DNA of 44,516 bases, the filler included, from Jimgerdemannia flammicorona (Eukaryota): NCBI GenBank assembly GCA_003990765.1. It is 2 parts of 2 records of this genome, joined end to end, with 100 filler letters (N's around TTAATTAATTAA, not from the genome) between each part and the next. Parts side by side here need not be neighbours in the genome. Positions count along the whole stretch, not along the records: positions 1 to 22,213 come from RBNJ01001318.1; 1 more part is not named here. One strand, given 5' to 3'. Positions within the stretch are counted from its first letter, which is position 1; the number at the start of each line of letters is the position of its first letter. Positions 2,531-40,858 of this stretch are shown here, in pieces. The notes beneath the pieces were generated by a model. The model had not been told where the DNA came from. It saw nothing but the letters and a program-made list of their open reading frames with translations, and did no database searches. The translations under genes were made by a program, and so were the position numbers.

Positions 2531-2566
2531 TACTACTCACAATAAATACTCTCTTCCAATATATTA

Positions 2567-5062: not shown

Positions 5063-5569
5063 TAATCAGCCTAGTGCTAGCCAATCCTGAGATCTTGAAA
5101 TGTAACTATTTTTATATAATTAAATTGAAATACTTATTATAAAATCCCTCTGATATAGCACTTTGAAAGCTTAAGATATGGCAGACACTTTGAAAACAAG
5201 ATAGATATCATCAGGGTAGATACTTTGAAAGTGGGGTAGATGTTGTCAGAGTACTATAGATGCAGTTATAGGTCATGGGAATTGTGATGAGAGTTGTGTT
5301 GGAAATAGAAAGCTTAAGATATGGTGAGCACTTCAAAAGTAAGTGATTTGAAAGCTTAAGATATAGTAGATATGGGTATTTCAAAAGTACAGATACTTTG
5401 TAAAAGTGGGTACTTTGAAAGCTTAAGATATGATGGCCACTTCAATCTAAAATATATAAATAAGTACTTCTGATGTGAAAATTTCTATAACAAAAAAAAA
5501 AAAAAAAAAAAGTCCTCTTTCTCTCCCTATATCAATCTTCATATACTTATTAAAGATCTTATCAGAGCA

Positions 5570-6260: not shown

Positions 6261-7260
6261 CTCTGAATCTATCTTTCCAAAAAAGAGCATACAATAACAC
6301 TCATCAGGCAGCAGTAGCTAGATATAAAAGGAATCATTGATAGCCTGTGTCATTGATAGCATAGCCTATATTGTAATTAATAAAATTTTTATGATATTTT
6401 CATTTGATTTTACCCTAATTGAATCAAGGCTCCATTTGATTTGACCCTAATCAAATTGAGGCTCCATTCAATTCAACTTCTATTTGATTCAACTTCCATT
6501 CAACTTGAAAAAATCCTGATTTGATTTAACTTTTCAGATCTCCTATTCAATTCAACTCAATTTCATTCAATTCATTTGTGAGCACTAACTATAATCAAAT
6601 GTCTATCTTCTGATTATTATTCCTAATTCAGATCAACTATCTTACTACTATAGAAAATTTATTACAATATTATAAGCCTCATCTATAATATATTTCAAAA
6701 AGTTACTAAATTTAAATAGATAAGTAAATAATAATAAGTATTCAATTAACTTAAGATTAGATTAATCTAGACTTCTTCTTGAGAAGACCTAACTGGTCTG
6801 AAGAATTCACTTTTTAGATAGATATAAACTTAATTAAATTAGGAGTAGTTCTTATTTAAAAAAAAAGATAAGGTAAAAATATGATTGCATATCTTAGCTG
6901 AGGAATCTGTAAAGGAGAAAGGAAATATAAATTCTATAAGTTGAAATATCTCACAGTTATCTTGGAGTAAAATAGTTCTACTACTATCTCACAGAAAAAC
7001 ACTTCACCATCCAGACAGACTGATGAGGTCGACAGGTTTGGCCTGCTCTGGTGTCAATCATTCCAGGTGGGATTTTCGGGGACTATGCTGGTCGCAAAGA
7101 TCGAGTCCTCATCTCACTCGATCATGCTAAAATATCCTCTCCTCTCCTTGCTAAGTGCGTATCCCCAAAACTTCATCTCACGTCAAAATGTCCCTCGTCA
7201 TCTTTACCAAACAATTCTTTCCATGACTAAGACAACCTCCTTGATATCGACAACGAAGCC

Positions 7261-7497: not shown

Positions 7498-8719
7498 GAC
7501 GCTGTGAGAATTCTCCGCCACATCGCCCCCAAGCCACTTGCGTGGCGTGAAGCTAATTGCCGAGTCTGACCGAATGACGACGCCACCGAAGGAAGTATCA
7601 ACACTTATGAGGTTACGGGGTACGCGCGGCCTGCCATTCAACGCAAATAATCTGGAATTCGGAGATTTTCAGGCAGGTGCGTATGTTGAAAATGTTATGG
7701 CTTCTTTTGCTCCGCACGCCGGACTCATCCAACCTATTAATCCTGGCTTAAAAGATCTCGGCCCCCCTCCTTCCTGTGGCAATGGCACCCCTATGGAGCT
7801 TGAAGAGGCTGTTATCTTTTCTCTTTGTCGATCACCAACTATCCCTGGGCAATTCCTACCAAAGATAAACGCGTCAAGCTCAAGTTGCACGCCGATGGTG
7901 CCAAGACCCTTCCCAAGACCTATATACACCCCCGACTATCTTGAAAATGAATAATTCTACTCTCCGACACTACATCCACCTGATGCTATATCCATTCCCA
8001 ACTCTATGTCCAACACTACATTCACTCCAAACACCATACCCGAAATTACATTTACTCCGCGATTTCGAACAGAATAACCTTCAAGCTACAATCGATAGAC
8101 CGTCTGTCCTCAAAGTAACCCCGCCCCTTCACCCTGTTCAAGTGGTTCGAGGAGGACTTATCACAAGTTACGATACTAGACATTGAGCGTATGGCTGAAA
8201 AATGGTATGGCTTCTCTCACCAGACTCATCCAACCTATCGAACCTGGCCCAAAACATCTCGGCCCCTATCTCACGCGATGGCAGCGTCGGAGATGCGTGC
8301 GTTGGATGCGTCAGACCCAGCAATGCAAGACAGCCTCGCTGCGAAGAACGAACCAGACCTCATGCATATTGAACAGACCTGGCTCTACTGAATAGGAAAT
8401 GGTAGAGGCGGATGGCACGTGTGTAAGTGGGATGGGTGGGAGGGATGGCGCAAGGATTTTATGAAGCATCTTATCCAATTACGCGATTCTCATTCCACTC
8501 ACTGGTATTAATCTTGTCCTCCTCTGCCAACCAACCCAACCACATTTCAGAACGCGCACGCTCCACTGCAACTCAGATGCCTCCATTTCCACCTATTATC
8601 GCCAGCACTGTGATAAAACTCGTGACGAAGACGACGAAGTGAGGATTGCAGACGACGCGTCGGAGGACAAGGACGAGGACGAGAAGATCTCGATCAAGCC
8701 GACATCTTAAGTAATCACG

Positions 8720-10810
8720 ACGAGGTGTTTATTAATGCTGCAAAAAGCTGAGCAAGTCTGACCAGGTTGGACCTGAGGGACAATCACGAGCATGGATATG
8801 TTACAATATTGCGAGCTAATCAAGCAATTTCCAAATCTTCGAAGCTTTCGTCTCTCACGCGAGGTCAATCGGCAATCGTCGCACGATTTTATATCGGATG
8901 GTCTCATGAGCGCGATCACTAAAACGAACCAGTCTCTTAAAATAATTGAGTTCAACAACTGCATGTGACTTATGAACCCGTCGATACTTAATTTCTGTTA
9001 TAGTCTCTGCTCACCGAATGCAAGCGGATTTTGGGTATTACCATCGTCGAAGTCATCGCCGCCTGCCACCCCTTCGATACGTTAACGTCTCGCATTCATC
9101 CTTCGACGACATGGCATTCCACTACCTCTACGGCACCCATGCATCTGACGGCAGTCCCACTTGGACCTCACCGACATCTCAGGGATCGGTGTGCTCGAGT
9201 TCTGCGAAATTATCAAGCTCTTTCCAAACCCTCGCAGCCTTCGCCTGTCCTGACCGCATGTCAGACGGTTTCCTATGCGCGATCAGTATCCCACACGCCG
9301 ATTTCTCAATAATATAATCGAATTCAACAACTCCATCCTCGAGTGTTTTAAAAGTCTCGCCGACACCCTGGAGTGTCTCTTCATGACGGGGGTGCAGGTA
9401 AATCTTGGTCTTCGGCACACTCATGCCTTGGCAATCGCCGCCTGCGACTCCTTATGCACATCCTGTCCTTCCCCACCTGGGAGCAGGTTGTTTGGTGTTA
9501 TTCAGATCTTCCAACTACTATTGTAGACGCCGTCCTCCTGCGGCACTTCTCCCTGTCCAGCAAGAGTTGCATCCAGCCGCTGCATGTTTTCTCACACTTC
9601 TTCAAAACTTGGGTGGGCATCGAGCTCAATTTTGCCGTGTTGGATCTTATTGTGACTGGAGCCTGACCTGGCAAAGCCATGCTTTCCGGTGTATCACGAG
9701 TTATTGAATATATTGTCAACGATGATTTGCAGTCACAAGGATATATCAAAACCGTCCGACGCAAGAGTCCAACGACCTTCTCACAAGGCTTCGGGGGCAC
9801 CGGCCATCAACACCTACGTATCGGATACTTCTGTAAGATATCTTCAACCCAACAAACAGAAGATTTTCGAGTTGCGTCGGTACCTTTTTCATCGACCGAG
9901 TTGGAATACCTTTTAATAGCTTTTTTGGTTGCCATTTCCAGAACTCTCTCTCCGACACACCTGGTCTTACTGACATGTCGCAAATTACGAGCACAACAAG
10001 TGGTACAGAAGGCGTACCCGGATTTCCCTGCGCGGGACTTGATGGAAATTGCTGAAGACTGACAAGTTGCGTATGACGGAGTCGACGCTTTTTCAGAGCT
10101 TAGAAAGTATGAGCGAGGCTGAAGTGTATGTGACACTGTTGCAGGCAGACCTACTCATTCCCTGGTGGGAGTAGCCGCGATGATGCTGGGATTCGTAAAG
10201 ACCGACAACGGCTATGTCCGGAACATGCGCAACTTCGCTGTCGTCGAGTCATCGTGGCACAATCTCGCGAAGTGTCTGCTATACTCGAATCTCCACTTCG
10301 GCTGTTATCGGGACATCTTTCAACACCTTTGCAAACTGTGCAATAATCCCGAATTAGCCACAGAGCCCATACAATCTGCATCTCGCGTGTTTCGGAAACC
10401 TTAAACCCGGTGGTCGTCCTCCGCACTCTCGTGGACTCATGTCCTTATATTATCTCGCTTAAAATTTTCAGATGTCCGTTGACAAGGATATATGATGCCA
10501 TCATCATGAGCATGGGAACGATGTGGCAACACCTCGGCGAATTCACCATCGAAATAGTTTCCGCAGCGAGGAGTTATATAATGCTGCAAAAAGCTGGGCG
10601 GGTCTGACCAGGTTGGACCTTACGGACATATCCGGGATCGATGAACAGCACAATTGCGACCTAGTCAAACTCTTCCCAAATCTCCTGACCCTTCGCCTAT
10701 CTCGAGAGATCAACAGGCAGTCCTCCCTCGATCATATATCTGACGACATCCTGAGCGCCATTAGACTCTAACCTGTTTCTAAAGGTTATCGAGCTCAATG
10801 ACTGTGAATA
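8720..10810 (+). pseudogene. Three scrambled copies of an LRR-like module (~8720-8965, ~9150-9340, ~10410-10810)
   Basis: Shared peptide LTRLDLTDISGI...LVKLFPNLLTLRLSREINRQSS.D.ISD..LSAI...IIE(F/L)N. The DNA repeat TAATGCTGCAAAAAGCTG..GTCTGACCAGGTTGGACCT occurs at ~8733 and ~10579. Frameshifts and stops are present. Confidence 0.65.
9430..10250 (+). pseudogene. F-box-like pseudogene, paralog of 14904-16364
   Basis: LLMHILSFPTWEQVVWCYSDLPTTIVDAVLLRHFS vs VVIYILSLLTLEELIWCYSALPTSIVDAVFLQHFS. IKTVRRK is shared. QQVVQKAYPDFPARDLM vs QQVVWEIYPDFPAQDLM. Broken by frameshifts and a large deletion. Confidence 0.85.
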
Positions 10811-11998: not shown

Positions 11999-12805
11999 AT
12001 GATTCCCTCGCGAAATCCCCGCAAACACATATGCAGTCTCGACTTTCTCCAGCAATATTTCCTCCTCTGGGCCCCCACAATTCAGGACGAGCGCGTCGTC
12101 TGCCGCGCCACCTACTTCGCCCTGACTCGCCACTACCGCAACGGCGACCATCACGGTGACCATGGCTGCGCCCAGGCCCGGGCCCATGTTAAGGAAACCT
12201 TGCAGGGTTTCTCATAGACGAGCGCCACCACCGCCGCGTGTACTGCCTCACGGGCTTCGAGGCCGTTTGCGACGATGAGATAGCGTGCATTCTCGGCGAC
12301 GCGATTGGTGAGTGCGAGATCCGGTTCAAGGATGTGTCACGTTCCGAGATGAGAGAGGAACTAGAGAAGTGGTGCGATGAGGATGGGAAGCATGGTAGGC
12401 GCGGAGGTGAGCGCCGGGACGATGAGCGTCACGATGGACGATGATGACGACGGAGAGCGCGACGACAACCGCCGCGATCGTGATGGCAAGTTCCCCCGCG
12501 GCAGGCCGCTGAGGAAGCACCTTACGAACACTCATATTGAAACCCTGCTCGATTTCTTTGAGTATGTCAAATTGGGCGACGCAGATTTTACTCCTGGTAG
12601 GCCCGTTTATGTGTCGTTACGTATATCCAGATACAATTCCACTAAATTCCTCCCTTAATGTGCAGGTGACCTACAGGACATCATAGACAAGAAGCCCGAA
12701 CCGCTTGAGGGATTCTTTAGGGAGCATCGTGACGAGTTCAGGGGCGGTGGTGATAGACTGTATGCTATAGTTACTAAAATATATGCACAGGTACTCAATG
12801 TATGA
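11999..12805 (+). pseudogene. Hypothetical protein gene, frameshifted, with intron 12597-12665
   Basis: GC-rich coding-like fragments lie in successive frames. The GTAGGC..TGCAG intron joins ...DADFTP|GDLQDIIDKKPEPLEGFFREHRDEFRGGGDRLYAIVTKIYAQVLNV* in frame. TATAAAA lies at ~11624. Confidence 0.45.
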
Positions 12806-13801
12806 TGACCTGCATGGCATTGGCGTTGGTGTCGCACCTGCGCTGCGGTTGCTCTATTGCTTGTCATGGGAGACACGGGGGTCTGGTTGTCTAGGAGCGT
12901 TACGCTGACGCTTGGCGGCGCGAGGCCAGAGCTCGGGAGGCGGCATCCTATCATAGTTGTTGGTAGACCTAACCATTTTGTCGACGTTGGGATTTTAGTG
13001 GATGGGGACGCGAACACGGGAGGAGCGCCGGCAGCTGCTTGGATTATCGACAATGGACCTAGTTTTATGCTTGGCCATGCGATCAACCTTGGGTCGGCCT
13101 CGCTTGCGGGTGGTTGGTGTAGAAGTGACACCGGTGTGTTGACTGATACTCTGCGCTGCCATATTCTCGGTCTTGCCGGGAAAGGTGCCCTTATCCTTGT
13201 CGTGGGACTTACCCTTTCCATTTCGCCTTGCCTCGTTCTCGCCGTCCCTGACATTACAAATTTGGCCCCTCTGTGTATTTTCTCTGCCTCCGGCCCGGCC
13301 AGGTCAATATCGTCGCTTTTCTTCTTCGCCAGTACTGACGGTCCCGTCGTGACCGCAATCTCCGAATACGCTTCCTGGTCCTCCGACTTCTTCGCTCTCG
13401 CCGCGGCCACAGTTCTGTTGCCTCCGCACCTTCCGCACAATGGGTGCATTCCAATCCACATGTAATGCAAGTCCTCTCTTGCGTGGAATTTGTTTTTGAT
13501 GGGGCATTTGCTCTCTCTTTTATTTCCATTCTCCTGCGTCTGTTCTTGGCTTCCCCGTACTGCCTTGCGAACTCAACGTCGACGCATCCCGATAGGCGGA
13601 CAAGGATGGATACGCGCTAGAAAGGTTTGTTGACTCCGCCGCCAAAGATGTCCCAGAATGAGGCAAGCCACTCAAGTTGCGTGTCACCGATGTTTGGAAG
13701 GCACTCGTGGCACCGACGGGACGGTGTTGAGGCATTGGGCTCCAAATGGGGGGATTGGAGGTAGAAGGTGGATTTTTGGAATCTTGTGGATTTGTGTTCA
13801 T
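12655..13801 (-). pseudogene. Hypothetical Ser/Pro/Thr-rich protein with a CxxC-x3-CxxC motif, apparently frameshifted
   Basis: Consecutive overlapping minus ORFs (13520-13906, 13254-13529 containing CITCGLECTHC, and 12655-13470) suggest one broken CDS starting at MNTNPQD (13801). Confidence 0.35.
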
Positions 13802-14903
13802 AGTGTTCAGGTGAGAGAAAGGGAAGTTGCTTAAGTATCCGTGTATGTTACAGTTAGGTATGATGTCACAGAGCGACTGGCACTGACTGACGGTTGTCAT
13901 CTTCATCTACCATATCTCGGATATTGAAAAGTGATAAATATTCAGTTATGCAAATGTCAGTGGAACAGAGGAAATGCTGGACATTGCAAACCATTTTAAA
14001 TGCCTAAATGTTCCAAGTTCTTTTTTACTGCAGTGGTTCCAGAATACCGAGGCGCTTGGTTCCATACGCGACATAAACGTGAGCCATTAATGTCGCGGGA
14101 GGGACACTCATCGCAGACTTTGGCCAGACCGACGACTTCGAAAACATATCTGGGAACGCGTTCCATACGCAAAATCTTACCCGCCTTTCCAAGGTAGTGG
14201 TAAAGAGCACTGGATTTATTTCAACTAATTTTCTCAACATGTACAGACATTTCGGAATCAAGTTCTTTTAATGATTTGTGGAATTGCAAACATATGTGAG
14301 ACGAGACTGGGATGTCCTAAGACGTCCCGATGTGATTATTGCCGTGATGTACCGTTAATTCTCTCTTTTTGAAATCCGATATATATGTACTGCAATCGTA
14401 ATTTACATAGATTAAAAAAAAACCCCCCCTTGTGAGCAAATATGACAACTATTTAATATATTCTCATAATCTTTCTACGTTTTGGATGACGGTAGTATAA
14501 TGGTGGCAGGGTAATAGATATCATCTGCAGACGTTTGTGGTTTGTTGGCAAAGAAGTGGCCCGTTTGGAAGACGGGTTGCGAATTAGAGTTATTTGTGGG
14601 TCGGTTTTTACGACAGCACTTATATCACACCCCAGTGATAATTCTTGCCATTTCGGCTGCACAAAGATCTAAAATCGAACACAAAAGGGCCAAATTCAAG
14701 TGAGTTATAAGAGCAAGCTTTTTCATCAAATAAAACAACCTATTAGTATTTATTATCGGAAATATTAAACAACAAAATAATATTATAATAATTTGAGCAC
14801 ACCCTCATTATTTATTTTATAATAACTAAAGCATTACTAAACTAAAGAACAATATATATCATCAGTGCAAAACCAAATACTACATTTCAAACTCGTCACC
14901 TCA

Positions 14904-18958: not shown

Positions 18959-19476
18959 TGTAATATAGCGGACACTTACTCTTGAAAGTACATCAGATTT
19001 CTGTATCTTGAAAACTTGACCATTCTGACTCTCGAAGAGTCTCTTGAAGTTGTAGGGGAGAGTGGGTGAGTTTGAAGTGTATCTGTCCACAGGCTTACTA
19101 GTTCCTTTACTATCTCTTTGCTTTGAACTATTTTGATCTAAGATTTATTCACTTGAAGATACTGGGTTATTTATACAAGTTTGCTAGCTATGAGAGGGTG
19201 GCTAAGTAATAAATGAGTCATTTGGACTTTGTCGAAACATTTGGACAATGTCTAAATACTATACTAAATCGGGGTATTCGATTTGGATAATGGTTAAATG
19301 CTATACTAAATCAGGGTATTCAATTTGGATAATGTCTAAAATTTAGACAATATCTAAGGATTTAGACAATGTCGAAATCAAGGACTGCTAACTATAAGAC
19401 TATACTACTTTGGGACTGGGTGCGATCAAGTGTCTATTCCCTATTTCCTTCTTCCAAATTTGGCTGTACTATCACA
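18959..19476 (-). repeat. 3' LTR of element A (~518 bp)
   Basis: Termini TGTAATA (18959) ... TATCACA (19476) are imperfect inverted repeats. The PPT AGGAGGAAGT (minus strand, 19477-19486) abuts it. Internal 42-bp and ~20-bp tandem repeats at 19222-19378. Minus-strand TATAAATA at ~19168-19175. Confidence 0.8.
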
Positions 19477-19974
19477 ACTTCCTCCTGAATAGATGGTCTC
19501 GTCCCTGAGGCATCTATTCAAACTTCCAGGCTTCAATGGTCTATATGTCTTGTACTGTGCAATTTGCTATATGACTGTTTTCCAATGATGTCTCTTCACT
19601 TTCTTGAAGTCGGTGGGAGTTACTCCTCTCAGGTGGTCTATTACTGCTTCATCTTCTTGGAATAACTTGTGGATCCTTTTGGCAATAGTGATCTGTGAGT
19701 GGGAGAGTTGACACTCAGCAATCCAGTCCTCCTTGGTCTTTGCTGGATCCTGATTGAGCACCTGTCCAAGCTTGAAGTACTCTTGGAATTCTGCCCAATA
19801 TTGATAGGCTCTAAAGTGTGAGATCCGAGAGAGATGAGTCTGCACAATACTCTGAATATCCTCATAGTATGGCTCTATGGTCGGAGGCTCGGTGGTGTGC
19901 CATTGTCTTTCGATGGCTCTTTAGGCAGCACTAGTGATCTTGAGTGCCATCACAGTACTTTTGTTATTGGCCAT
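19441..19974 (-). pseudogene. Accessory ORF3 of element A (~177 codons, unknown function)
   Basis: The ATG at 19974 overlaps the end of IN (...AAA TAT CAT GGC CAA TAA). One frame runs to TAG at 19441-19443 with only two internal stops (TAA, TAG), both explicable as C>T. Homologous to the LTR ORF of element B. Confidence 0.75.
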
Positions 19975-22213
19975 GATATTTCTTGAGTCGGTTTTGATAA
20001 ATAGTGGTGGGGATTATTGTGCCTGAGGGTTTTTGTAGCCAAAAGGTGGTCCCTTTTATATCTTGCACAAGGTAAGGTCCTTCCTACTTGGGCTCCAGTT
20101 TTCGTGACCATGAAGCTTCTACTATATTCCGATACACTAGAACTTTGTCTCCTATCTTGATAATCTTCAAGGGCTTGTGGATCTTTTCCACATTCCTCCG
20201 TTATAGTGTCTGCATCTTGGTTATGTAATCCTCAGCCTTCTTCCTGATTTGGTATAGTCTCCGTATTTCCATATCTACATGTTTCCATACAGCATCTCCA
20301 TTGGATGATAGGGTTCCTTGAGAACATTCTTCTCTGAACAGCATTTCTCGAGAGGTAAAGTGGGTGCTTTGTGATCGGATATCCCAGAGAGCAGATAATG
20401 CTATTGGCAGATAGTGATCCCAGTTCTCGTAGTTATCACAGATCTTGGCGATAACATTCTTGAGGGTCTTGTTGGTCCTTTCTACTTGTCCATTTCCTTG
20501 GGGGTGATAGGCTGTGGTCCGAATGTACTGGATCTTATACTTCTTGTAGAGAACCTCAAAGAGCTGGTTCACGAATTCTGTTCCTCTGTCTGTAGTTACT
20601 TGTGTTGGGGTCTTGAACTAGCAGATGATTTCTTTGTGGAAGAAATCGGCAATTGACTATGCATTGGCTTCCTTGAGAGGTCCTGCTTCTATCCACTTCG
20701 TAAAAAGGTCTACAATAACAATGATGTATTGGTTACCAGTCAGGGTCAAGAGTAGAGGGCCGATTACATCCATTGCTATATGGGCAAATGGTACTGGTTC
20801 TATGTATACTGATCCTGGGGCTTGATTCCATTGATCTTATTTCTGTTTCTGGCATTTGTCACATGTCTTGATAAATTGTCTGATATCTTCCTCCATACCT
20901 GGCCACCATATTGTTCTTCTTGCCTTGTCATATGTATTTGTTCCTCCTAGATGGCCAAGTTCATGTACTGATTTTATCGCTTGCTCCTTCTTGTGTTCTG
21001 GTATGACTAGTAGTTTTTCTTTCTTTAGTGTTTCTCTGTCGGTTTCGAATTGTTTCCATGTCCTGTTGATAATCATTTGTGTCCATTCTTCCAGATGTTA
21101 GGGCATCTTTCACTGTCCCAGGTATGTGATAATCCTGTAGTAGAGCTCCTTATTCATGATTGATTTATTGGTTAGAGGTAGTTCAAGGTGTCCGTGAGAG
21201 AGCATCTGTATTGGAATTTGTTCTTCCAGGGCAGTGTATGATGGTTACATCATAGGCTTGTAACTTCATTATCCATCTGGCATAGATTCCCTTGGGTTGT
21301 CCAGTTGTCAGTAGCCAGATAAGAGCTGAGTGGTCTGTCTGGATAGTAAAGTGTCTTCCGGCCAGATAGTAGTGGAACTTTTCCACAGCCCAGATGACTG
21401 CAAGGCATTCCAACTTGTAGGACTCATATTCTTTTTCAGCCCCTCAGGTTCCACGGCTAAGATATGCAATGATATACTCTTTTTTGTCTTCTTTTTGAGC
21501 TAGGACTACTCCTAGTCCCTGTGGACTTGCATCCATCTGAAGGATAAATTCTTGGGTCTAATTGAGTCATCTGAGGATAGGTGCCTGAGTTTGTCTGACC
21601 TTGAGTTTGTCAAATGCTTTTTGTTGTCTGCCAGTCTACTGGAACTTGGTATCCTTCTTGTTGAGTTCGTAGATTGGACCTGCGATGTTGGAGAATCCTC
21701 TAATGAATCTGCAATAGTAGGAGGCAAGTCCCATGAAGGCTTGGGCTTCTGTGATGGTAGTGGGCCTTGGGTATACTGCTACCGCTCGTATTTTGAGGGG
21801 ATCCATGTGTGTTCCATCTCATTTGATGATATGGCCAAGATAGGAGATCTTGATTTCCACAAACTTGTACTTCTTGGGTTTGATATAAAGGCCATGTTGT
21901 CGTAGTCTCTCTATTATCTGCTGTATATGCTGCAGATGTTCCTCGGCTGTCTTGCTGTAGATAATTATATCATCGACATAGACTATCATCCATCTTCCCA
22001 TGTCATAGTGGAAGATTTTGTTCATCATTCGCTGAAAGCTTGCTGGTGCATTGTACATTCCGAATGGCATTCATAGGTAGATGTAGGTTCCGTCTGGGGT
22101 GATGAAGGCTGACTTTTCACTTGCCACTTCTGTGAGTCTGATTTGGTGGAATCCTGAGTATAAGTCCAAGGTGCTGTAGTACTGTGCTTCATCTTCTAGT
22201 GTTATAAGGATGT

Positions 22214-22313
22214 NNNNNNNNNNNNNNNNNNNNNNNNNNNNNNNNNNNNNNNNNNNNTTAATTAATTAANNNNNNNNNNNNNNNNNNNNNNNNNNNNNNN
22301 NNNNNNNNNNNNN
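22214..22313. other. Artificial contig-joining linker
   Basis: 44 N + TTAATTAATTAA (stops in all six frames) + 44 N, exactly 100 bp. Confidence 0.95.
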
Positions 22314-22422
22314 TTTTTTTTCTACCTCTGAAATTCTGGTGATTATCGGCTCCAAATCGTATAAAATGCAATATTTGTCGTACCTGTCCGGTGTGTTTTA
22401 GGTAGTTTATCCTCCCCAACTT

Positions 22423-22461
<39 letters not shown>

Positions 22462-22664
22462 TGTAGCGCGAGTGCGACATTGTGTACAACAATATAATGA
22501 CATTTAATTTGTGTTGCAATACATGCATAAATCTCGCCGCACCTCCCAAATGAGTATTTTTTCTAACCAACTTCATGGCTCAATCAGCCAACAGAAATTC
22601 ACATTGCACACTGCTCCGCAAACCGAAAAATTAAGGTAAAAGTAAAGCGGAATCTTTCGATTTC

Positions 22665-26161: not shown

Positions 26162-27025
26162 ATGCCAAAGGTCACGGAAAAGAAGGTTGACGACGACGAC
26201 ATTCGTCTTGAGCGCGATCGAGAACGGCAGAAGCGTGCGCAAGCCCTCGGCGCAGAGCGTGAGAGGGACCGCCAGAGAAAGCAGCAACGACGTAAACAAG
26301 AGACCGCCGACGAGCGCAGCACTCGCCTCGAGAAAGACCGACTGAGAAAGCAGCAAAAGCGCGAGAAAGACGCCAACAAGGAGCGCGAGCGGGACCGCGA
26401 GAGGAAGAGGCAAAGACGTGCACAAGAGACCGAAGAGGAGCGCAACGCCCGCCTCGAGAGTGACCGCATAAGAAAGCAGCGAAAGCGTGAGAAAGACGCT
26501 GCCGACGAGAGAGAGAGGGACCGCGAGAGGAAACGGCAGCGGCGCGAGCAAGAGACCATCGACGAGCGAAACGCACGACTCGAGAAGGACCGACAAAGAA
26601 AGCGGCAAAAACGCGAGCAAGAAAGCATAGACGAATGCGACACTGGTATCCAGACGAGAACTGATGCAGAACAACGGAGGTCCGAGCAACAATCGGATTC
26701 TGACGAAGAACGAGAGCATCGCCTTGCCGGAGTCTACAAACGAGCTGATGTAGAAGTCCTGCAACCTCATCGTAATGCCCCACTGCCCCAGTCTGATCTA
26801 CAGCGACGTATTCCGGGGCTTACACCGCACGATCAATTGGTCCTGAGAGAAGTGATCAAGATTGAGCACATCCTCTGTCCGACATGTAACGAGTCCTTTC
26901 AGTCCGTCGCCGCTCTTGGTAAGGAAGAATGCCGACGCTGCATCGCGGTGAGGCCGGTACCGAGAAAATTGTCCACCAAAAAAACGAGAGCTCCGGAACC
27001 CGAAAAGTCTCTTTTGCCTAATTAG
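26162..27025 (+). CDS. 287-aa STPR-like repeat plus C4 zinc-finger protein, resembling the N-terminus of fungal Helitron RepHel proteins
   Basis: Intact ORF. Three 42-aa (126-bp) units containing ETxxERxxRLExDR (26261, 26387, 26513). LCPTCNESF...ECRRC...PRKLS resembles, from memory, the CPTCNERFP...ECRRC...PKKFS segment preceding DUF6570 in fungal Helitron-like proteins. Confidence 0.65.
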   Translation: MPKVTEKKVDDDDIRLERDRERQKRAQALGAERERDRQRKQQRRKQETADERSTRLEKDRLRKQQKREKDANKERERDRERKRQRRAQETEEERNARLESDRIRKQRKREKDAADERERDRERKRQRREQETIDERNARLEKDRQRKRQKREQESIDECDTGIQTRTDAEQRRSEQQSDSDEEREHRLAGVYKRADVEVLQPHRNAPLPQSDLQRRIPGLTPHDQLVLREVIKIEHILCPTCNESFQSVAALGKEECRRCIAVRPVPRKLSTKKTRAPEPEKSLLPN

Positions 27026-31400: not shown

Positions 31401-32241
31401 GGCACAGAAGATTGAAAATGTTTACCTGAAAAATACCCTCGCGATGAGATTAAAAAGGTGGAGGCGAATTTTCAGCTTGCGCAACTTTGGGGACAGTTCG
31501 CAACGGCAGACTCCACGGGCAGGCAGTGCAAGGCTCAGTTGGATTGGACTAATGTACATCTGAGACAACAGATGTTCCGCACTGGCGAACCTAGGCAGGA
31601 GCGGAGGCCTGTCTTCGCGCAAGTGCAGGTAGTTCAAACAAGGCCAGCACAGATATTGGGATGATTGCTAGTATCAGGCCAAGCTCGCAGAAATTCGAGG
31701 CAAGCTTGTTTCGTCAAAGCAAGTAATGTCAGAGCTCGCATTACAGAATCAAATGCTCAAGGTGCAGGAAAGACGGTTGGAGGGCGCAATGGCTGATGTG
31801 CAGGTGATCTGGGTGGATGACAGAGGTTTTGTTGATGCAATTGGCAGTGTGCGAAGCGAAAATCACGGAGTTGGAGGCGGAAAAGAAGATTGCCGTCGAG
31901 ACGCAAGATTCGCACGCAGTGAGATATGAAGAGGTCGTCCGGATGAACAATCGTCTGATAAAATGGCTTGAGCAGGCCCAGTCCACTGTCGAGTTAAAAA
32001 AACGGCGATTTGGACGGTTCGAGGAAGAGAAGACGGGGCAGATGTATGTCCTGTCCAGGTCATTGGGAGAGCTGGAGAGGAAGCTGGAGTCCAAGGCGCT
32101 TGAGGAGGATGCCAACTCATGCAAGGACAAGGACACGATTGAGACCCTCCGTTTGGATCTTGCGGAGGCGCAAAACAAGTCCAAACAGCTTGAATAGACC
32201 GTCGAGGTGAGGAAGAAGATTAAAGATCTGGAGCTATATAT

Positions 32242-33647
32242 TGTAACAGTGATCTCAGAATAATGACATCATCACAGGAGACAGCCTTTCCTTGTAAGCC
32301 ACCATAGCAGAGCATAAGAAGATCATATGGCATGATTCACCCAGGTTATAAGATGAGTAATGATGACTAACCATGAGTCATCATGACCACAAGACAGATA
32401 TCTCAAAGAATATAAAAGAAGGATCAAGGAACTACAGTAGCAGCAATCCAAACAAAGCTCATAGAAATAATTTTAAAGATTTACTATAAATAAATATCTG
32501 TTGTTCACCAAATTTCAAGGTCTAGGAACTACCAAGGCCCCTCAGTCTAGGATAGGATGTTCTAAGATATTAGAAGAGCTATGAGGATCTATACAAGAAG
32601 AACTTCTAGCTTTAACCTGGATACTGGTGATCTTTATCATTATATCCTCTACCATCATGAAATGGAAACAAGAATTACTATTGTTATCAAATATCTTTAG
32701 ATGTAGCAAGAGTATGAAATAAGAAATCTCCTCTGCTGGAAATTTCTTTAGGCCAGTCTCCAAGAGATTCAAGATGCTACCCTCATGAATGTATATGAAA
32801 TAAAGATAGCTAAGAAGATTTATCAAGTCTTTAGATATACATTGTAGTTAATTCTCAACTTAAAATATACTAGGATCTCAGACTTTAAAAAACTATCAGC
32901 CTGTTATACAAATATACTAGAGGCCATAGTGGCCACAGAAGCCCAGTTTACTATTACTCTCAATAGTAATGAAGTAGAAGAGTTCTGGTATCCCATTCTC
33001 CAGGAAAATTCAGATCAATTTATATAAGAATTGATTTTAGCATTCTAAGGTTCTAGTATCCAGACTAGACCTCTCCAAGATCACATATTTATTTCTTATT
33101 TTGTAGAAGAGAATATTATAGATTAGAGAGCCTTTGCTGCTGCTGAACATGATAATGACATTAGCAATGATATCATCCTATACAACATATGCAAGATGTA
33201 TGAAGTATGTGAAATAGATAAAATATTCATAGATCTTATTTTCTTCAAAAATATCCTAACCTCTGACAGCAATGAAGATAAAGTTCCCATGGTCCTAAAC
33301 ATTCTGCTTTAAGTTCTTAGTAATACTGAAATCTACTGATATTCTGAACTTGTGCAACCATTCATACAGATACTTGAATTTATACTTACAACTATAGTAT
33401 TCTGTATTTTTTATTTAGTTATTGGAATTTATATTTAGCTTTATAACTTAGCAATTATTGAATTATATTTTGTATAAATACCCCTCTTATTTCCTTTGAA
33501 ATAAAGTCAGTTTCAGTTTACTTATACTCAATTTTATACAAGCAATCTAAGAGATAACAAGACAGTTTAAAGATAAGAAGTTTGAGGACTATAAGACCTT
33601 GAAAAGAATCTGATATATTTGAAGAACTCAGTAACTACTATATGACA
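32242..33647 (+). repeat. 5' LTR of element B (1406 bp)
   Basis: TGTAACAGTG...ATATGACA, collinear with 39331-40858. Confidence 0.93.
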
Positions 33648-33739
33648 ACTTGGTACTTATTAGCTGGTGATTTAAGATGAATCCCTCACTTTCAAGCTAA
33701 AAAATAAACAACTACCATAATAACTACTCTAACTACAAG

Positions 33740-34760
33740 AGTTATCCCCTGTAAGAATTCAAGATAAGATAAAAATGCATCCCTCTACATTCTATAGATA
33801 TATTACTGAAGAGTCAATTGAAGACTTTGAACAATTTACTACTATATAAGCTCTTGCCATAAATATACAATTGGCCCTTCTATCTATCAGTCTCAGAGGA
33901 CCTATCAGAGATAAGTTCAATGCAGCCACCATTACTAATGCTGGTGTAGCCAAACTTGCCAATATGAAGACCTTTCTCAGAACTACATACTATACTGAAG
34001 AGATCAAGTAAGCTCTCAAGAATCAACTCAACACTATCTACCAGGAACTCAGTAAAGATCCCAACTCATTCTATACCTGAATCTACTATCAGATTGTTTT
34101 AGCTGGCTATAATGATACCCTCAAGGAACAAATAGCTGATTCAATCTTCCTCAAAGGAGTTTATCCTGAAATTGCCCTAACAATCCAGTCTATCCTAACT
34201 GCTCTGACTCTTGACTAGAAAGTAGTCTTTGTACAGAGATATTGAACTGCCAGACACTCTTTTGAATACTCAATAGAGAAAATAACTGACATCAAGATAG
34301 AGCTATCAAAGCTAATCAGTATCATATCTACTACAGTTGTAAACAGACAATCATCCCCACCTACCCCCAAGATAACCAAAGCTGACCCAGTAGAAGAACT
34401 TACTAAGCAGTTTGCTAAGATGACTGCATATCTTAGTAATATTGTTAGAGAAGTCTGAAGTGCCAACAAGAGACCAGTACAGAGATTTGCAGTTACTACA
34501 AAAGAATATAATATCATATACTTCAGATGTGGAGAAGAAGGCCACTATGTAAAGAGTTGCATAATCAAAACAAGATATAAAAACCAACTAAGCAATGCTA
34601 TCAGAATCAGAGAACAAATCAATACAGTAGTCATCAAGGAGATTGGTAATACTGATGATAAAGAATACTATAAGGAGCCTGAATTCTACCCTGTTACTGA
34701 AGATACCAGAATCTGGTCCAAGCTCTATGACAAGAAGGGGGCAATAGCAAGCCAGTTGGA
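33740..34760 (+). pseudogene. gag with CCHC zinc knuckle
   Basis: Gag-like ...ALKNQLNTIYQE..DPNSFY...IFLKGVYPEI. The knuckle reads YFRCGEEGHYVKSC at ~34519-34560, with the first C mutated TGC>TAC. Boundaries approximate. Confidence 0.8.
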
Positions 34761-35139
34761 AGACTAAAGAAGACCCCAGCTATCACTATTCAAAGCAAGA
34801 TCCAATCTGAGGAGATTGATTAAGATATAGAGTTAGATGAAGCTACCTGCCAAATTATTGAAGGCACTACTCCAGTCTTAGGAGAAAGTGAAAGCAAGAA
34901 AGAACAAAAGCTGCACAAGAATAAGATCTATCAGTATAATACATATCTACAAGGATCTCAAGGAACAGAAGGTCAATGCTACTTTTGGACAACTAGCTGA
35001 AGTCCCTGCCTTCAGACAGCAGTTGAGAGTAGGACTTGCAATCACTGTCAAGAATCAAGAGTACAAGATTGTAGAAGCTCACAATATACAAGAAGAATCT
35101 GAAGACTCAGGCAAAGAATCTAAAAACTAGCATAAGATA

Positions 35140-35510
35140 TCAGCCTATACTCTATGTCAGATCAAAGATAGTATCTTTGATGCCATTATTGATACTAGTA
35201 CTGGAGGATACCTTATGAGTAAGAAGACAATTGACTATCTAGACTGAGACATTGAAGAGTCTACCAAAATAGTCTATATCACAGCAGATAGTATACAAGC
35301 TACCCCCCTAGGTAAGATCTGAGAAGTCTCCATCAAGATTGGAGGAGCTACTATTCCAGTATATATGATTGTTACAAGTACCACCAACTATGATATCCTA
35401 ATTGACAACTAATGGCTTCATAAGGCCAAGGCTGTTATTGACCTCAATGCCCAGAAGATACAGATCAACTATAAAGAAAGAAAGATATAAGTCTCTATTA
35501 ATATCTATAA
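35140..35510 (+). pseudogene. Aspartic protease
   Basis: DAIIDTSTGGYLMS (DTG>DTS by G>A), with YDILIDN*WL at the C-terminal motif. Confidence 0.85.
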
Positions 35511-35859
35511 AGAAGTACTGCTAGATATAGAAGAAGGAGATAAAGAAGATACAGAAGTCTTCATACACTCAGTGTATATATAAGAATAAGAGCAAGACAC
35601 CTAAGCTCACAGATGAGCAATAGTACAATAAGATTATTAATAACTATACTCCTCAAGAAAGATGCCCCCATGGTACTAGAATGTACTGCTCTAAACACCT
35701 GAATAACTGCTGGTCCTGTATCAGTGAAGTCAGAAAAATCTGCCAACAAAAGTATGAACAAGAAGCTGCTAAAGCAAAAAGGAAAGCCAAAGAAGATGAT
35801 CAGCTCTCAGAGCTTCAAGCTGATACTAAAGATAAGAAGGAACAAGAATCAGGCATCAC

Positions 35860-36226
35860 CCTCAAGGTCAAGAAGTTTCATCCCAAAGCCAAGATCCCAG
35901 AATACAAAACTGAAGAAGCTATAAGAATGGACCTTGTCAGTATTCAAAATGCTATCCTTGAACTACAGACCACTACTCTACTTAGTATTGAAATTGAAGT
36001 CAAGTTGCTAGAGAACTATACTAGAATTATCAAGACCAGGAGCAGTCTGGCCAAAAGTAAAATCTCAGTTGAAAGAGAAGTAATTGACCCTGATTATACT
36101 GGTGAGATCTTCCTTATAGTCAGGAATCACAACCCCACTACCCCATTGAAAGTTAAGAAGCATAACAGAATTGACCAGATACTGATCCATGAAGTCAAGA
36201 AGCTCAAGATCACTGAAGCCATTTAA
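35860..36226 (+). pseudogene. Trimeric-type dUTPase domain
   Basis: Motif I (AIRMDL), II (TRSSLA), III (VIDPDYTGEI) and IV (NRIDQILI). Motif V was not seen. Confidence 0.9.
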
Positions 36227-36459
36227 TTCATCAAGACTAAGAGAGGAGAATAAGACTTTGAATTTACTAGAAGAGGAGCCTATACTATCACTAAGATTAC
36301 CAAACTCAAGCACAAGAAAGACAAGAACCAGAATAAGTACATATATACTATTGGAGAAAACTTTCCCCTAGAGGAATAATTTCTCAAGATCCTGCACCAG
36401 AATAAAGGAATACTTGCTATAGACTTCAGGGACATCCACAATCAAGAACCCAAGTACTA

Positions 36460-37754
36460 CTATGAAGTTGATACTGACAATACCAAGCCTATCTATCAGA
36501 AAGCCAGACCCATACCACCTATCTACAGAGAATAGCTGTGAGCAAAACTCAAGGAAATGGAAGAAGCTAGAATCATCAAGCAAGCTATCAGCCTCTGGGC
36601 TTCACCCATTATCCTTGCTCCAAAGAAAGGAAGCAAGCCTGGAGAGTTTGCTCCAAGACTCTGTATTGATTACAGAAAGCTCAATACAATCACTAAAAAG
36701 AATAGGCAGCCTTTACCAAATATTCAAGAAATTCTTACCACTTAGCAAAGTCAAATACTACACTACCTTAAATCTGTTCTCAGGCTTCCATCAGATTGGT
36801 CTCACTCAAGATGCCAGTGAGAAGTCAGCCTTCATCACACCTAATACCACCTATGTCTACCTGCAAATACCATTTAGAATGTGCAATACCCCAGTAAGTT
36901 TTTAGTGAATAATAAACAGAGTCTTCAGCAATGAGATTGAAAAATAGCTCTTTGTCTATATCAATGATGTGATTACCTTCAGTAATACTGTATGAGAATA
37001 TGTCAACTATATATAGCTAGCTCTCAAGAAGCTCAAGGAATATGGCCTCTATATCAAGTCTAAGAAGTACAAGTTTATAACTCAGAAAATCACCTACCTA
37101 GGACACATCATCAACCAGACTGGAATTCATACAGACTCCATGAAGATTGAGGCTATTGTAGCCTACCCAAGACCCAGAACAACTATAGAAGTCCATGCCT
37201 TTCTTGGACTGGTCTCCTACTATAGAAGATTTATCAAAGGATACTCTAATATTACAGTATCTATCTATGAGCTACTGAAGAAGGAGACCAAATTTGAATG
37301 AACCAAGGAATGTCAAGAAATCTTCAATGAACTCAAGACCAGATTGACCCAAGCACTCATTCTTAAAAGACCAGATTGGAACCTAGAGTTCATCCTGTAG
37401 ACAGATATAAGCACTATAGGACTTGGAGCAGTCTTAGCTCAGAAGAAAGATGGACATAAATATATCATCTCCTATATAAGCTGAGGCACTCATGGAGTAG
37501 AACAGAACTATGAGTCATACAAGCTTGAATACTTAGCAGTAGTTTGGGTAGTAGATAAGTTCCACTACTACCTAGCCAAGAAATACTTCACTATTCAAAT
37601 AGACTATCCTGCTCTCACCTGGCTATTCTACACTCTGAACTCCAAAGAAATATATGCTAGATAGATCTACAGACTGTAAGAGTATAACTATACTATTAAG
37701 CACTGCTTAGGAAGAACCAATGCAAATGCTGATGCACTCTCAAGGATACTCTGA
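36460..37754 (+). pseudogene. Reverse transcriptase - RNase H
   Basis: WASPIILAPKK...RLCIDYRKLN, LNLFSGFHQI, VYINDV (YIDD>YIND), GLGAVLAQ, KFHYYL, ANADALSR. Confidence 0.95.
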
Positions 37755-37779
37755 AATACCCCCATAAAGACTATTCAAT

Positions 37780-38976
37780 AAGAATAAGGAGCTATACTAT
37801 GAATTAATCAGCTGTCTTGGGCAGTAGAAGATGCCTAACCATCTTGAACCCTAGACTATCACTATCATTAACCAGACTTGGAAACAATTTGAACTAGACA
37901 ATACCACACTCAGAAAAGGAGGAAAGCTTATAATACCTGAACACAAGAAGTATCAAGTAATGAAGAAAGTATACAAACAAGGATACCTAGGAAGAACCAA
38001 CATATATGACAAAGCAAGAAGAACCATATAGTGACCCAAGATGGAAGAAGACCTATGCCAATTTGTCAAAAGGTGTAATAAGTACTAAAAACAGAAATAA
38101 GATCAGTAAGACCAGGTACCCAGGTCATCAAGAATTGAGCTGATCCCCTTCTACCACATTGTGATAGATATCATTGGACTGCTACTAGTAATATTATCAG
38201 AAAACTGCTATATTATAGTTATCATAGACCTCTTTACCAAATAGATAGAAGCAGGAGTATTACAAGAAGTCAATGCTCTCTCTATAGCCAACTTCCTGCA
38301 CTGAGAAATCATTTACTACTACAAGACACCAAAGCAAATCACTACAGATTATGGTACAGAATTTGTCAATAGATTCTATAAGATAATATATCAGAAATAT
38401 AAGATTCAGTATATCAAGACCACTGTGTACCACTCTCAAGGAAATGGACAGACAGAAAGAACAAACAAGACTCTTAAGAACATCCTGGCAAAGATCTCAG
38501 ACATGTATGACAATTGAGATAACTACCTCTCAACTACTCTCTCTGTCCTATGAGACATATGGTCATAGAGTATATACTTTACCCCAAGAGAACTGCTCTT
38601 CAGAGAAGAAGATTCTAATGGAACCTCAGCTACAAACCTAGATCTAACTTAGAGATGAATTGACTCAGAAATCCAGAGACTGTACCAAATCAAGAAGAAG
38701 GCTAAAGATTATATCATCAAGTTACAAGTGCTGACAAGGAAGAATGTAGAAAAGAATTACAAGACCCTAGAACCCATCTAAATCAGAGAAAAGATTCTAC
38801 TGTATCAGAATATATTAGAAGTCTCATGGTTGTGAAAACTGAAGCTAAAATAGGAAGGACCCTTCTATATATAAAATATTAAGAGAATTATCTTCTGGCT
38901 TAGAAAACTCTCAGAAATCATACTGCCTACTATGATACATAAGAACAGACTCAAGAAGTACCATGAATCTATATAA
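37780..38976 (+). pseudogene. Integrase (HHCC, DDE core, GPF); no chromodomain seen
   Basis: Collinear with the integrase of A: YDKARRTI, TDYGTEFVN, TTVYHSQGNGQTERTNKTLK, EGPFY, NRLKKYH. Confidence 0.93.
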
Positions 38977-39330
38977 GAGAAGCAAAATATGATGATCACC
39001 TATGAGGTTCTAGTTCATGAATCATAACAGCATATCTTGTAACTAGCAGGCAATCTGTCTAGACCATTCTCTAAGAGATACAACACCAGTAACTACTCAT
39101 CTGTGAGACTTTCAAAGCCAGAGGAGTTCAAACTATCAATTGATTGATCAAGATCAGAATCAGGCCCTTGCTCTATATGAAGAGAGTGACTCTTCACTAT
39201 TATACCAAAATGTATAAAGAAGATGCTAGCTCATAAATACCACTTTTTGACCCCCTTAGAACCAGCAAATGTTTCAGACTGGACTAATGAATAAGGATGG
39301 TTAAGAGAAGATCCTTATTTAAGAGAAAGA

Positions 39331-40858
39331 TATAACAGTGACCTCAGAATAATAATATCATCATAGGAGATAGTCTTTTCTTGCAAGTCACTAGATTGGA
39401 GTACAAGAAGATTATATAGCATAACTCACCCAAGCTACAAGATGAGCAATGATGATTAACCATGAGTCATCATGACTATAAGATAGATATCTTGAGGAAT
39501 ATAAAAGAAGGATCAAGAAACTACAGTAGCTGCAATCCAAAATAAAAAAATATCTGCTGCTTGCCAAACCTCAAGGTTCAGGAATCACCAAGGTCTCTCA
39601 GTCTAGGAAAGGATGTTCCAAGACATCAGAAGAGCTATGAGGACTCATATAAGAAGGACTTCTAGCCTCAATCTGGGTACTAGTAACTCTTATCATTATA
39701 TTCTCTACTGCTATAAAATGGAAACAAGGATTACTATTGCTACTGAATGTCTCTGAATGTAGCAGGAGTATAAAATAGGAAACCTCCTCTGCTGGGAATT
39801 CCCTCAGATCAGTCTCCAAGAGATTCAAGATGCTACCCCCATAAATGTATGTAAAATAAGAATAGCCAAGAAGATTTATCAGGTCTTCAGGCATGTACCA
39901 TAGTCAATCCCTAACTTGGAGTATACTAGGATCTCAGACTTCAAGAAACTATCAGCTCACTATATCAATATACTAGAGGCCATAGTGGCCACAGAAGTCC
40001 AGTCCACTATTACTCTCAATAGTAATGAAGTAGAAGAGTTCTGGTATCTCATCTTTCAGGACAATCCAGATCAATTCATACAAGGATTGATCTCAGCATT
40101 CCAAGGCCCCAGCATCTAGGTTAGACATCCTCAAGATCCCACATTTGTTCCTTATTTTATAGAAGAGAATATTATAGATTGGAGAGCCCCTGCCACCACC
40201 AAACATGATAATGTCATTAGCAATGATGTCATCCTGCATAATATATATGAGATGTATGAAGTACATGAAACAGATGAAATGTTTATGAACCTCATTTCCT
40301 TTGAGGATATTCTGACCTCTGGCAGTAACAAAGATGAAGCCTCCATAGTCCTGAACATTCTGCTCTAAGTTCTTAGTAACACTGAAATCTTCTGGCATCC
40401 TTTTTCTGTATAACTGAATTCTACCAGCATTCTTTTTCTGTAACACCTGAATCTTCAAGCACTCTTTTTCTGTACCACCAAAATCTACTGATATCCTGAA
40501 CTTATACAACTATTTATACAGACACCTTACAACTGTAGTTTTCTGTGTTCCAGTATTTTATTTGGTTATTGGAATTTATATTTAGCTTTATAACTTAGAA
40601 ACCATTGAATTATATTTTGTATAAATACCCCTCTTATTTCCTTTGAAATAAAGTCAGTTCCAATTCACTTACACTCAATTCCATGCAAGCAATCTAAGAG
40701 ATAACAAGACAGTTTAAAGATAAGAAGTTTGAGGACTATAAGACCTTGGGAAGGCACTCTAATAAGAACTTGCTTATAACAAACTTGTGGTTAGTCTAAG
40801 AGATATACCTTGAAGAGAATCTGACATATTTGAAGGACTCAGCGACCACTACGTGATA
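39331..40858 (+). repeat. 3' LTR of element B (1528 bp)
   Basis: TATAACAGTG...ACGTGATA (termini TG>TA and CA>TA). Follows the PPT. Carries segments at ~40390-40480 and ~40750-40808 that are absent from the 5' LTR. Confidence 0.93.
39550..40500 (+). pseudogene. Accessory ORF inside the LTR of element B (second copy at ~32494-33340)
   Basis: A single frame of roughly 270-310 codons whose stops are TAG/TAA/TGA, several of them sense in the other LTR. TATAAAAG lies ~50 bp upstream (~39500; ~32411). Homologous to ORF3 of A. Confidence 0.75.

Follow-up and report, generated by a model that had tools for sequence, protein, structure and literature searches.

An accessory gene probably placed inside or outside the LTR in two related Ty3/gypsy retrotransposons of Jimgerdemannia flammicorona

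In a window of Jimgerdemannia flammicorona DNA (44,516 nt in total, consisting of two records of assembly GCA_003990765.1 joined through 100 filler letters), an open reading frame (ORF) that follows pol is probably the decayed remnant of a real accessory gene, one specific to a dUTPase-bearing lineage of Ty3/gypsy elements. In this reading the gene has two layouts, internal to the element (A type) and within U3 of the long terminal repeat (LTR; B type). The window holds one representative of each layout, elements A and B, which are two related, dead gypsy-type retrotransposons (Table 1).

Table 1. Coordinates of the features of elements A and B, counted along the window
Feature	Position	Strand	Remarks
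Element A, 3' LTR (519 nt), TTGTGATAG...TATATTACA	18959..19477	-	TATAAATA box at 19175-19168
Element A, polypurine tract (PPT) AGGAGGAAG	19478..19486	-	inside block CTATTCAGGAGGAAGTTG; aligns to the PPT of B
Element A, accessory ORF ("ORF3") pseudogene, ancestral frame	19514..19974	-	stops at 19923-19921, 19566-19564 and 19543-19541; base lost at 19546/19547
Element A, pol remnant (RT, RNase H, integrase)	19964..22213	-	cut off by the N run 22214-22313
Element B, 5' LTR (1406 nt), TGTAACAG...TATGACA	32242..33647	+	paired alignment with the 3' LTR; PBS/leader ACTTGGTAC next
B-type ORF copy in the 5' LTR	32353..33312	+	decayed, many stops; 33-nt insertion relative to the 3' copy
Element B, internal region	33648..38976	+	PBS/leader, gag, protease, dUTPase, RT, RNase H, integrase; pol stop TAA at 38974-38976
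Element B, PPT AAGAGAAAGA	39321..39330	+	directly ahead of the 3' LTR
Element B, 3' LTR (1528 nt)	39331..40858	+	TATAAATA box near 40617-40631
B-type ORF copy in U3 of the 3' LTR	39442..40368	+	308 codons from the putative ATG; stop TAA at 40366-40368

Structure of the elements and of an intact relative

The pol sequences of the two elements are 67.5% identical at the nucleotide level over 2227 columns (19972-22181 in A against 38965-36756 in B). In element A, pol ends at the TAA at 19966-19964 on the minus strand and is interrupted by in-frame stops, six in the RT-RNase H frame and seven in the integrase frame. The dUTPase of element B was located at 35681-36226 (Pfam, E = 1.6e-14).

A scan of metagenome loci with the A-type protein P0023 as query returned one related locus among 87 matches. 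This locus, L001, is a contig of 6479 nt that contains a complete dUTPase-bearing Ty3/gypsy element with the accessory ORF intact. According to Pfam, its ORF at 843-4619 encodes a zf-CCHC gag, an aspartyl protease, a dUTPase, RVT_1 and RT_RNaseH, and an integrase (Integrase_H2C2) lies at 4516-5838 in the +1 frame of RT-RNase H and contains one stop; no chromodomain was detected by Pfam in this locus. The accessory ORF occupies 5795-6256 (153 codons), one frame on from the integrase, which it overlaps by 44 nt. Because it stands after the integrase in this gag(CCHC)-PR-dUTPase-RT-RNase H-IN element, the accessory ORF probably belongs to the retrotransposon.

Element A is colinear with L001 3557-6220, with zero indels across 2664 nt up to a base that is missing from the window, and the internal region of element B is colinear with L001 488-5796 in tblastx. 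The PR-RT-RNase H-IN order and the CCHC knuckle of gag, present in L001 and carried over to A and B by this colinearity, are those of Ty3/gypsy elements. Element B has both LTRs with TG..CA ends, a PPT ahead of the 3' LTR and a PBS/leader behind the 5' LTR, and element A is represented by its 3' LTR; the layout of a sense ORF placed after pol and before the PPT and 3' LTR is seen in the A type (window and L001) and not in the B type.

The accessory ORF of element A

The original prediction treated 19441-19974 as a single frame that begins over the end of the integrase gene and reads through the PPT into the LTR. Its start was confirmed: the ATG at 19974-19972 (minus strand) lies within the last codons of pol, in the +1 frame, with an overlap of 11 nt that takes in the pol stop. 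The single frame, however, did not hold. Translation from this ATG gives 17 residues, a stop (19923-19921), 117 residues, a second stop (19566-19564), 41 residues and a third stop, and the longest stop-free stretch of the interval is the 117 aa encoded at 19920-19567. The read-through was correct as a reading of the letters, since 19563-19441 does give TCA GGA GGA AGT TGT GAT over the purine tract, but it is not native. Relatives have one extra base at 19546/19547, and once it is restored the frame matches that of relatives of 153 aa and ends at a native TAG (19516-19514), 27 nt ahead of the purine tract. The extra base behind 19546 is also present in contigs of the sequencing runs (three of X1 and one of X4). 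The ORF of the window therefore reads into the LTR because a one-base loss shifts its frame, a product of decay rather than a feature of the gene, and ORF3 is a pseudogene of a real gene.

Contigs from run X4 bridge both junctions of the ORF, one across the junction with pol (record 23, 19893-20084) and three across the ORF end, PPT and LTR (records 19, 22 and one of the twins 20/21). In run X9, which we guess to be RNA, no contig covered 19538-19939.

A word-index protein search gave 12 candidates, 10 of which had E ≤ 0.01 (7e-54 to 7.5e-25, with 59-75% identity). Three A-type relatives (P0001, P0019 and P0023) are intact proteins of 153 aa that share the C-terminus EAWEFE. A longer protein search returned 35 candidates, none at E ≤ 0.01, and a metagenome locus scan with the A alignment as query returned 35 pattern matches and no relatives. 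An exhaustive phmmer search of 1.84 billion representatives gave four matches at E ≤ 0.001, namely close relatives and P0011. The latter, a protein of 776 aa with five near-identical repeats, was rejected as a relative (hhalign probability 0.4%; 17 of 19 Pfam rows without a self-standing passing stretch). A "DFKK" motif at 14365-14376 was likewise set aside as a chance occurrence, the family profile having no match there. Altogether 21 proteins related to the accessory families were found, and protein searches, phmmer and Pfam revealed no sequence relative of the A-type family outside its own group.

The comparison of the window with L001 indicates how this frame has evolved. Differences at codon positions 1/2/3 numbered 34/24/81 in the accessory ORF (141 codons), 59/46/155 in RT-RNase H (319 codons) and 53/35/125 in the integrase (391 codons). 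The excess at third positions in the accessory ORF implies that the A-type frame evolved as coding sequence, and the Nei-Gojobori estimates for 140 of its codons were pN = 0.20 and pS = 0.79, the latter saturated. Judged from these substitutions, the A-type protein has been retained by selection, with replacement positions changing roughly 1.5 times faster than in pol. The earlier argument that retention implies function thus stands for the A type through its codon-position pattern.

The same frame relationships could be read in another way, namely that the A-type ORF is a C-terminal extension of the integrase reached by a +1 frameshift, with no separate gene. Both in the window and in L001, the ORF lies at +1 relative to pol and the two overlap, and the integrase of L001 is itself at +1 relative to RT-RNase H. 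We consider this reading improbable. The overlap differs in length between the two copies, the ORF frame is open for just 13 codons ahead of the ATG in both of them, and in B pol and the ORF are separated by 344 nt and a PPT. In addition, 10 of the 15 A-family relatives listed start at this same Met (MAN/MAT), although gene callers favor Met starts. A separate accessory gene is the reading we retain.

Boundaries of the LTR of element A

The end of the LTR of element A is firm. Eight contigs of run X1 and one of run X2 leave the window at 18958, and the consensus of the contigs past this point (reverse-complemented by hand) matches the PBS/leader that follows the 5' LTR of L001 (L001 534-560) and resembles the leader of B.

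Several observations bear on the LTR start. Two X9 contigs (records 29 and 31) cease aligning at 19477, record 31 continuing with 149 further unlike letters, and summed contig depth drops at this position in runs X9 and X2. The block CTATTCAGGAGGAAGTTG that surrounds the PPT has the same letters in element A and in both L001 copies, whereas its flanks are variable; the PPT of L001 is at 6288-6296, and the gap between ORF stop and PPT is 27-31 nt across the A type. Moreover, the inverted termini of the LTR change together, being TGTGATAG/TGTAATAT in the window and TGTGACGG/TGTAACGT in L001.

What lies ahead of the upstream LTR of L001 is an ORF tail of 40 nt and a PPT, not host DNA, so L001 cannot by itself fix the LTR start of A. 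As the window also contains no 5' LTR of element A, the start rests on its homology with the boundary in B, on the TG..CA ends and on the two X9 records, of which only record 31 continues. These same two circumstances would suit an arrangement in which the LTR of the A type, like that of B, actually starts ahead of the ORF, and does so within the end of pol. Both types would then carry the gene in the LTR and nothing would have been relocated; the ORF tail in L001 does have the look of an ORF-containing 5' LTR cut at the contig end. We give this arrangement little credence, however, since the homologue of the PPT and TG start of B sits downstream of the A ORF, record 31 departs exactly at 19477 where depth in X9 and X2 also falls, and the paired termini match and vary in concert. 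An LTR beginning downstream of the ORF is therefore assumed for the A type below.

A third decayed LTR was observed in the window at 1611-2075; it carries too many mutations to be of use in fixing an LTR start.

The LTR-borne ORF of element B

The two LTRs of element B could be aligned from the TG site adjacent to the PPT to the ..ACA end, after which ACTTGGTAC follows. Short ATAT repeats flank the element (32238-32241 and 40859-40862) and may be a target-site duplication, a weak indication given their low complexity. A check for host-gene continuity found no open frame across the insertion site.

The B-type ORF starts 111 nt into U3, from putative ATGs at 39442 and 32353, and its end lies about 250 nt short of the TATA box, with stops at 40366-40368 and 33310-33312. 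Being wholly in U3, it is present as one copy in each LTR. The A-family profile matches the 5' copy at 32749-32892. In the 3' copy, 10 stops interrupt the 296 codons translated (39442-40329), and the Met of the relative P0014 aligns 36 codons downstream of the putative ATG, near 39550. A protein search with the B ORF, with X at the stops, gave four relatives among 227 candidates (E = 4e-105 to 6e-56; 64-69% identity), all of them intact, 174-271 aa long and ending in LN(F/I)LL. The intact B-type relatives are P0014-P0017 and P0024. A scan of viral contigs with the B alignment as query gave 164 pattern matches and no relatives, and at the DNA level the B type is represented by this window only.

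Between the 5' and 3' LTRs of B we counted 214 transitions and 12 transversions, and at the five stops of B that fall in columns aligned with relatives, the relatives have W, Q or R in every case. Both window copies were killed by transition hypermutation, which in B is of the C-to-T type.

Identity between the two LTRs is uneven, at 79-81% over the first 1038 aligned nt and 91% over the last 324. Such unevenness might be expected if the long "LTRs" were instead the ORF and short LTR that form the 3' end of a tandem or nested copy lying upstream, beside a full element. This is very improbable. The PPT-adjacent TG site at which the repeat exactly begins has its homologue at the start of the A-type LTR. 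Ahead of the 5' copy, the sequence shows no relation to the pol end and spacer that precede the 3' copy, and with transitions so far in excess of transversions, decay can be uneven where mutable sites differ in number. We therefore treat the repeats as true long LTRs that contain the ORF.

Homology of the two ORFs

The original prediction had paired four motifs of the A and B peptides by eye, and hhalign paired all four identically. With the window rows included, the alignment of the A and B families had a probability of 90% and E = 1.6e-6 over 106 columns (A 23-129 on B 45-173); with these rows removed, it had a probability of 70.6%, E = 3.9e-5 and a score of 37.3. When the columns of the B alignment were shuffled 200 times, this score was never reached (the highest gave 33.8 and the next 21.2), and the reversed alignment scored 21.4. 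The significance against shuffled controls that had been called for was thus obtained at the profile-profile level, whereas within the window the tblastn match of the A peptide was marginal, at E = 6e-4 and 26% identity across 120 columns.

The two ORFs could conceivably be unrelated, with motifs and profile match arising by chance between helical proteins of similar composition. The marginal tblastn value would agree with this, as would the 4.4 and 0.8 bits given to the two B copies by an HMM of the A relatives and the one shuffle that came to 33.8. Nevertheless, chance is a distinctly improbable explanation for 104-106 colinear columns at the E-values above with no shuffle reaching the score, and in each of these sister elements, with pol DNA 67.5% identical, the ORF is the first in sense orientation to follow pol. 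On the strength of the profile comparison, the A and B ORFs are homologous. B-type proteins have an additional C-terminal half that is highly conserved and acidic.

Position of the ORF relative to the LTR boundary

The contrast drawn at the outset between a 0.5-kb LTR with an internal ORF in A and a long LTR containing the ORF in B was borne out, with lengths of 519 nt against 1.4-1.5 kb and an ORF in both LTRs of B. The order gag, pol, ORF, R in the genomic RNA is common to the two types. In the A type, the ORF of 153 codons ends about 30 nt ahead of the PPT and is thus internal; in B, pol is followed by a spacer of 344 nt and then by the PPT.

The PPT and LTR start of L001 align to those of B at 39314-39379 with a score of 44, which none of 200 shuffles reached (highest 37). 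The corresponding part of element A in the window maps to the same place in B, although not significantly (score 28.5, reached by 30 of 200 shuffles), and against the 5' copy of B none of the PPT/LTR-start queries reached significance once six tests were allowed for. Two other DNA matches between A and B are colinear and weak, one at the TATA box (19178-19164 with 40617-40631 and 33470-33484) and one at the R-U5 end (18999-18958 with 33607-33648). A relic PPT and LTR start after the stop of the B ORF, seen by eye, was absent from the best local alignments and was discarded.

The boundary module, comprising the PPT, the TG start and about 60 nt of U3, therefore follows the ORF in A and precedes it in B. 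Because this module appears to be homologous in the two types, the ORF would have switched sides of a conserved boundary. The mechanism originally suggested, a shift of the PPT/U3 boundary, does not fit as stated, since the same module is 3' of the ORF in A and 5' of it in B. As far as sequence comparison can tell, a new PPT born upstream would not explain the layouts, and either the module or the ORF would have moved. Such a rearrangement may have arisen in reverse transcription, with either the module or the ORF being duplicated or transferred; one route would be a template switch that duplicated the module, after which the old copy was lost. Once reverse transcription is complete, the side on which the module lies decides whether both LTRs receive a copy of the gene.

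Protein properties and possible role

The original prediction described the product as lacking a transmembrane segment and unlike env. This view is supported by five intact relatives, in which the maximum Kyte-Doolittle mean over 19 residues was 0.19-0.74 and neither a signal peptide nor transmembrane segments of the env type were found. Pfam assigned no family to any of the five at E ≤ 1. Of two profile searches against the PDB, one gave a single chance-level match (asparaginase, E = 0.35) and the other gave none. Matches in the ESM Atlas were to unnamed or mixed clusters, and one Atlas feature row that names a helix-turn-helix cluster (score 0.92) is a lead only.

Both AF2 models are all-helical but poor, with pLDDT values of 48.6 and 39.5. 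That of P0001 has a helix at 81-88, a three-residue turn and a helix at 92-113 (pLDDT about 55-65), which fall within the best-conserved core. From this predicted secondary structure and our own reading of the motif, residues 81-113 of P0001 read like a helix-turn-helix. In the intact B-type relatives, the first 60 residues are net positive and the C-terminal half is strongly acidic, as in P0014, whose net charge is +4, +4 in the first 60 aa and -21 overall.

We suppose that the accessory protein would be a soluble helical factor produced from a subgenomic message, and that it would act in trans on the nucleic acid of its own element. The conserved leader sequence CTG|GTGATT, located directly behind the PBS, is a candidate splice donor for such a message. 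Our best guess, a tentative one, is that it may be a helix-turn-helix-like, nucleic-acid-binding regulator of LTR transcription in which the acidic tail of the B type might serve as an activation region.

Among 3' accessory genes, lentiviral nef and foamy-virus tas/bet overlap the PPT/U3, Tas being an activator that binds DNA and contains an acidic activation region. The accessory ORF is likewise 3'-terminal and near the PPT, and by analogy Tas may serve as a working model for the B type. In contrast to these genes, the ancestral frame of the A type leaves 27-31 nt between its stop and the PPT, so that the two do not overlap. A more specific proposal, which we think rather unlikely, is that the gene encodes a Tas/Tat-like trans-activator that would bind its own U3, and that a duplicated module of PPT and LTR start took it into the U3 of B. 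If this were true, each LTR of the B type, even a solo one, would amount to a self-contained regulator gene, dispersed over the host genome and able to switch on sister elements in trans; Ty3/gypsy would possess an LTR-encoded regulator, and the A/B pair would show how a U3-borne sag or nef can arise.

Relation to known accessory genes

Accessory genes mark the step from a simple retrotransposon to a complex retrovirus, and to our knowledge very few of them are known outside animals and plants. The Sag protein of mouse mammary tumor virus (MMTV) is a membrane-anchored superantigen, a type II membrane glycoprotein. Its gene is described as LTR-encoded, with an ORF wholly in U3 (PMC12548423). 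In layout only, the B type resembles sag as presented there, having a complete ORF in U3, in both LTRs and at the 3' end of the genomic RNA (PMC12548423). It differs in belonging to Ty3/gypsy rather than to a betaretrovirus, and its protein has neither Pfam similarity (E ≤ 1) nor a membrane anchor.

Sense ORFs between pol and the 3' LTR (aORF-3S) are a known class of additional ORF in LTR retrotransposons, covered in passages of a review that deal with plants and with Boty of Botrytis (PMC7264820). The A type resembles this class, as characterized there, in having a sense ORF right after pol and before the PPT and 3' LTR that appears to be conserved among the copies seen, and differs from it in that the ORF has no env-like features, is 153 aa long and starts over the pol stop (PMC7264820). 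The phrases "in the LTR" and "inside the LTR" occur zero times in the same review (PMC7264820). Fungal Ty3/gypsy elements with a dUTPase between protease and RT have also been reported, some of them drawn with an "add. ORF" described there as being of unknown function (PMC2864245). They share the PR-dUTPase-RT-RH-IN order with the present elements, and their additional ORF, known from a figure legend, may or may not be the accessory family found here (PMC2864245).

In a literature search, none of the titles or abstracts listed described a Ty3/gypsy element that carries an ORF within its LTR. If only the layout holds and the role of the protein proves mundane, the finding would still be useful for annotation, because ORFs within long LTRs are easily missed or masked. 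Beyond this, the lineage would offer an unnamed protein family, apparently under purifying selection, in a retrotransposon group whose sister lineages place the gene on opposite sides of the PPT/LTR boundary. Elements A and B may accordingly serve as a natural pair for asking how genes enter U3, as sag did in MMTV, and what an LTR-borne copy does to the element and its host.

Decay of the elements and other features of the window

The two LTRs of element B (32242-33647 and 39331-40858), the plus-strand Ty3/gypsy element, are separated by 214 transitions and 12 transversions, and their identity is uneven, rising from 79-81% over the first 1038 aligned nt to 91% over the last 324. These differences follow a RIP-like or methyl-cytosine deamination pattern, and the divergence of the pair is therefore unusable as a clock. 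The sequences flanking the element (31817-32241 and 40859-41000) appear GC-richer, and both translate to a charged, heptad-like peptide. Insertion of element B thereby possibly disrupted a host gene. No frame runs through across the reconstructed empty site.

On the minus strand, homology of element A to L001, a metagenome contig carrying a relative of it, ends at 22213, and the sequence past that point is unrelated (poly-A/T at ~22400-22470). Element A is either 5'-truncated or interrupted where the sequence has a gap or is masked. At 22214-22257 and 22270-22313 lie two N runs, each 44 letters long.

Four further pieces of elements like A and B, all heavily decayed, are also present in the window (see table), and a short-unit satellite (GAAAGTTGAATCAAAT-like) precedes the LTR end at 1611-2075. 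A separate stop-to-stop frame contains three 126-nt tandem repeats (26220-26597) and encodes a very charged, ERDRERKRQRR-type product whose end weakly matches a C2H2 zinc finger (E 0.025).

Coordinates of the features described (window positions unless L001 is named)
Feature	Position	Strand
Regions of A matching the two L001 frame overlaps	21255-21148 and 19974-19964	
Leader compared, B	33648-33700	
Leader compared, L001	534-590	
Leader compared, loose ends	18958	
U3 repeats, A, ~60-nt units	19220-19378	
U3 repeats, L001 upstream LTR, 21-nt units	174-277	
U3 repeats, L001 downstream LTR, 18-nt units	6396-6467	
Decayed piece, LTR end and mutated PBS/leader	1611-2075	-
Decayed piece	5121-7020	+
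Decayed piece	8004-9433	-
Decayed piece	12718-13578	-
Charged repeat frame, 296 codons	26135-27025	+

Reading frames, U3 repeats and leader

In L001, RT-RNaseH, integrase and the accessory ORF occupy frames 0, +1 and +2, with overlaps of ~100 nt (4516-4619) between the first two and 44 nt (5795-5838) between the last two. Because element A is colinear with L001 without indels, the frame change from RT-RNaseH to integrase is common to both and is no private mutation. Integrase may be reached by programmed +1 frameshifting or have an ORF of its own.

Short repeats, tandem or palindromic, occur in the U3 regions and vary from copy to copy. The upstream and downstream LTRs of L001 differ strongly, and the contig is therefore a two-subfamily tandem or an assembly chimera.

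Just 3' of the PBS, the A-type and B leaders are nearly identical (GCTGGTGATT.AAGA.GAATCCCTCACTTTCAAGCT); the LTRs themselves are barely alignable. Within this leader, CTG/GTGATT looks like a splice donor, which by analogy would be positioned as in retroviruses.
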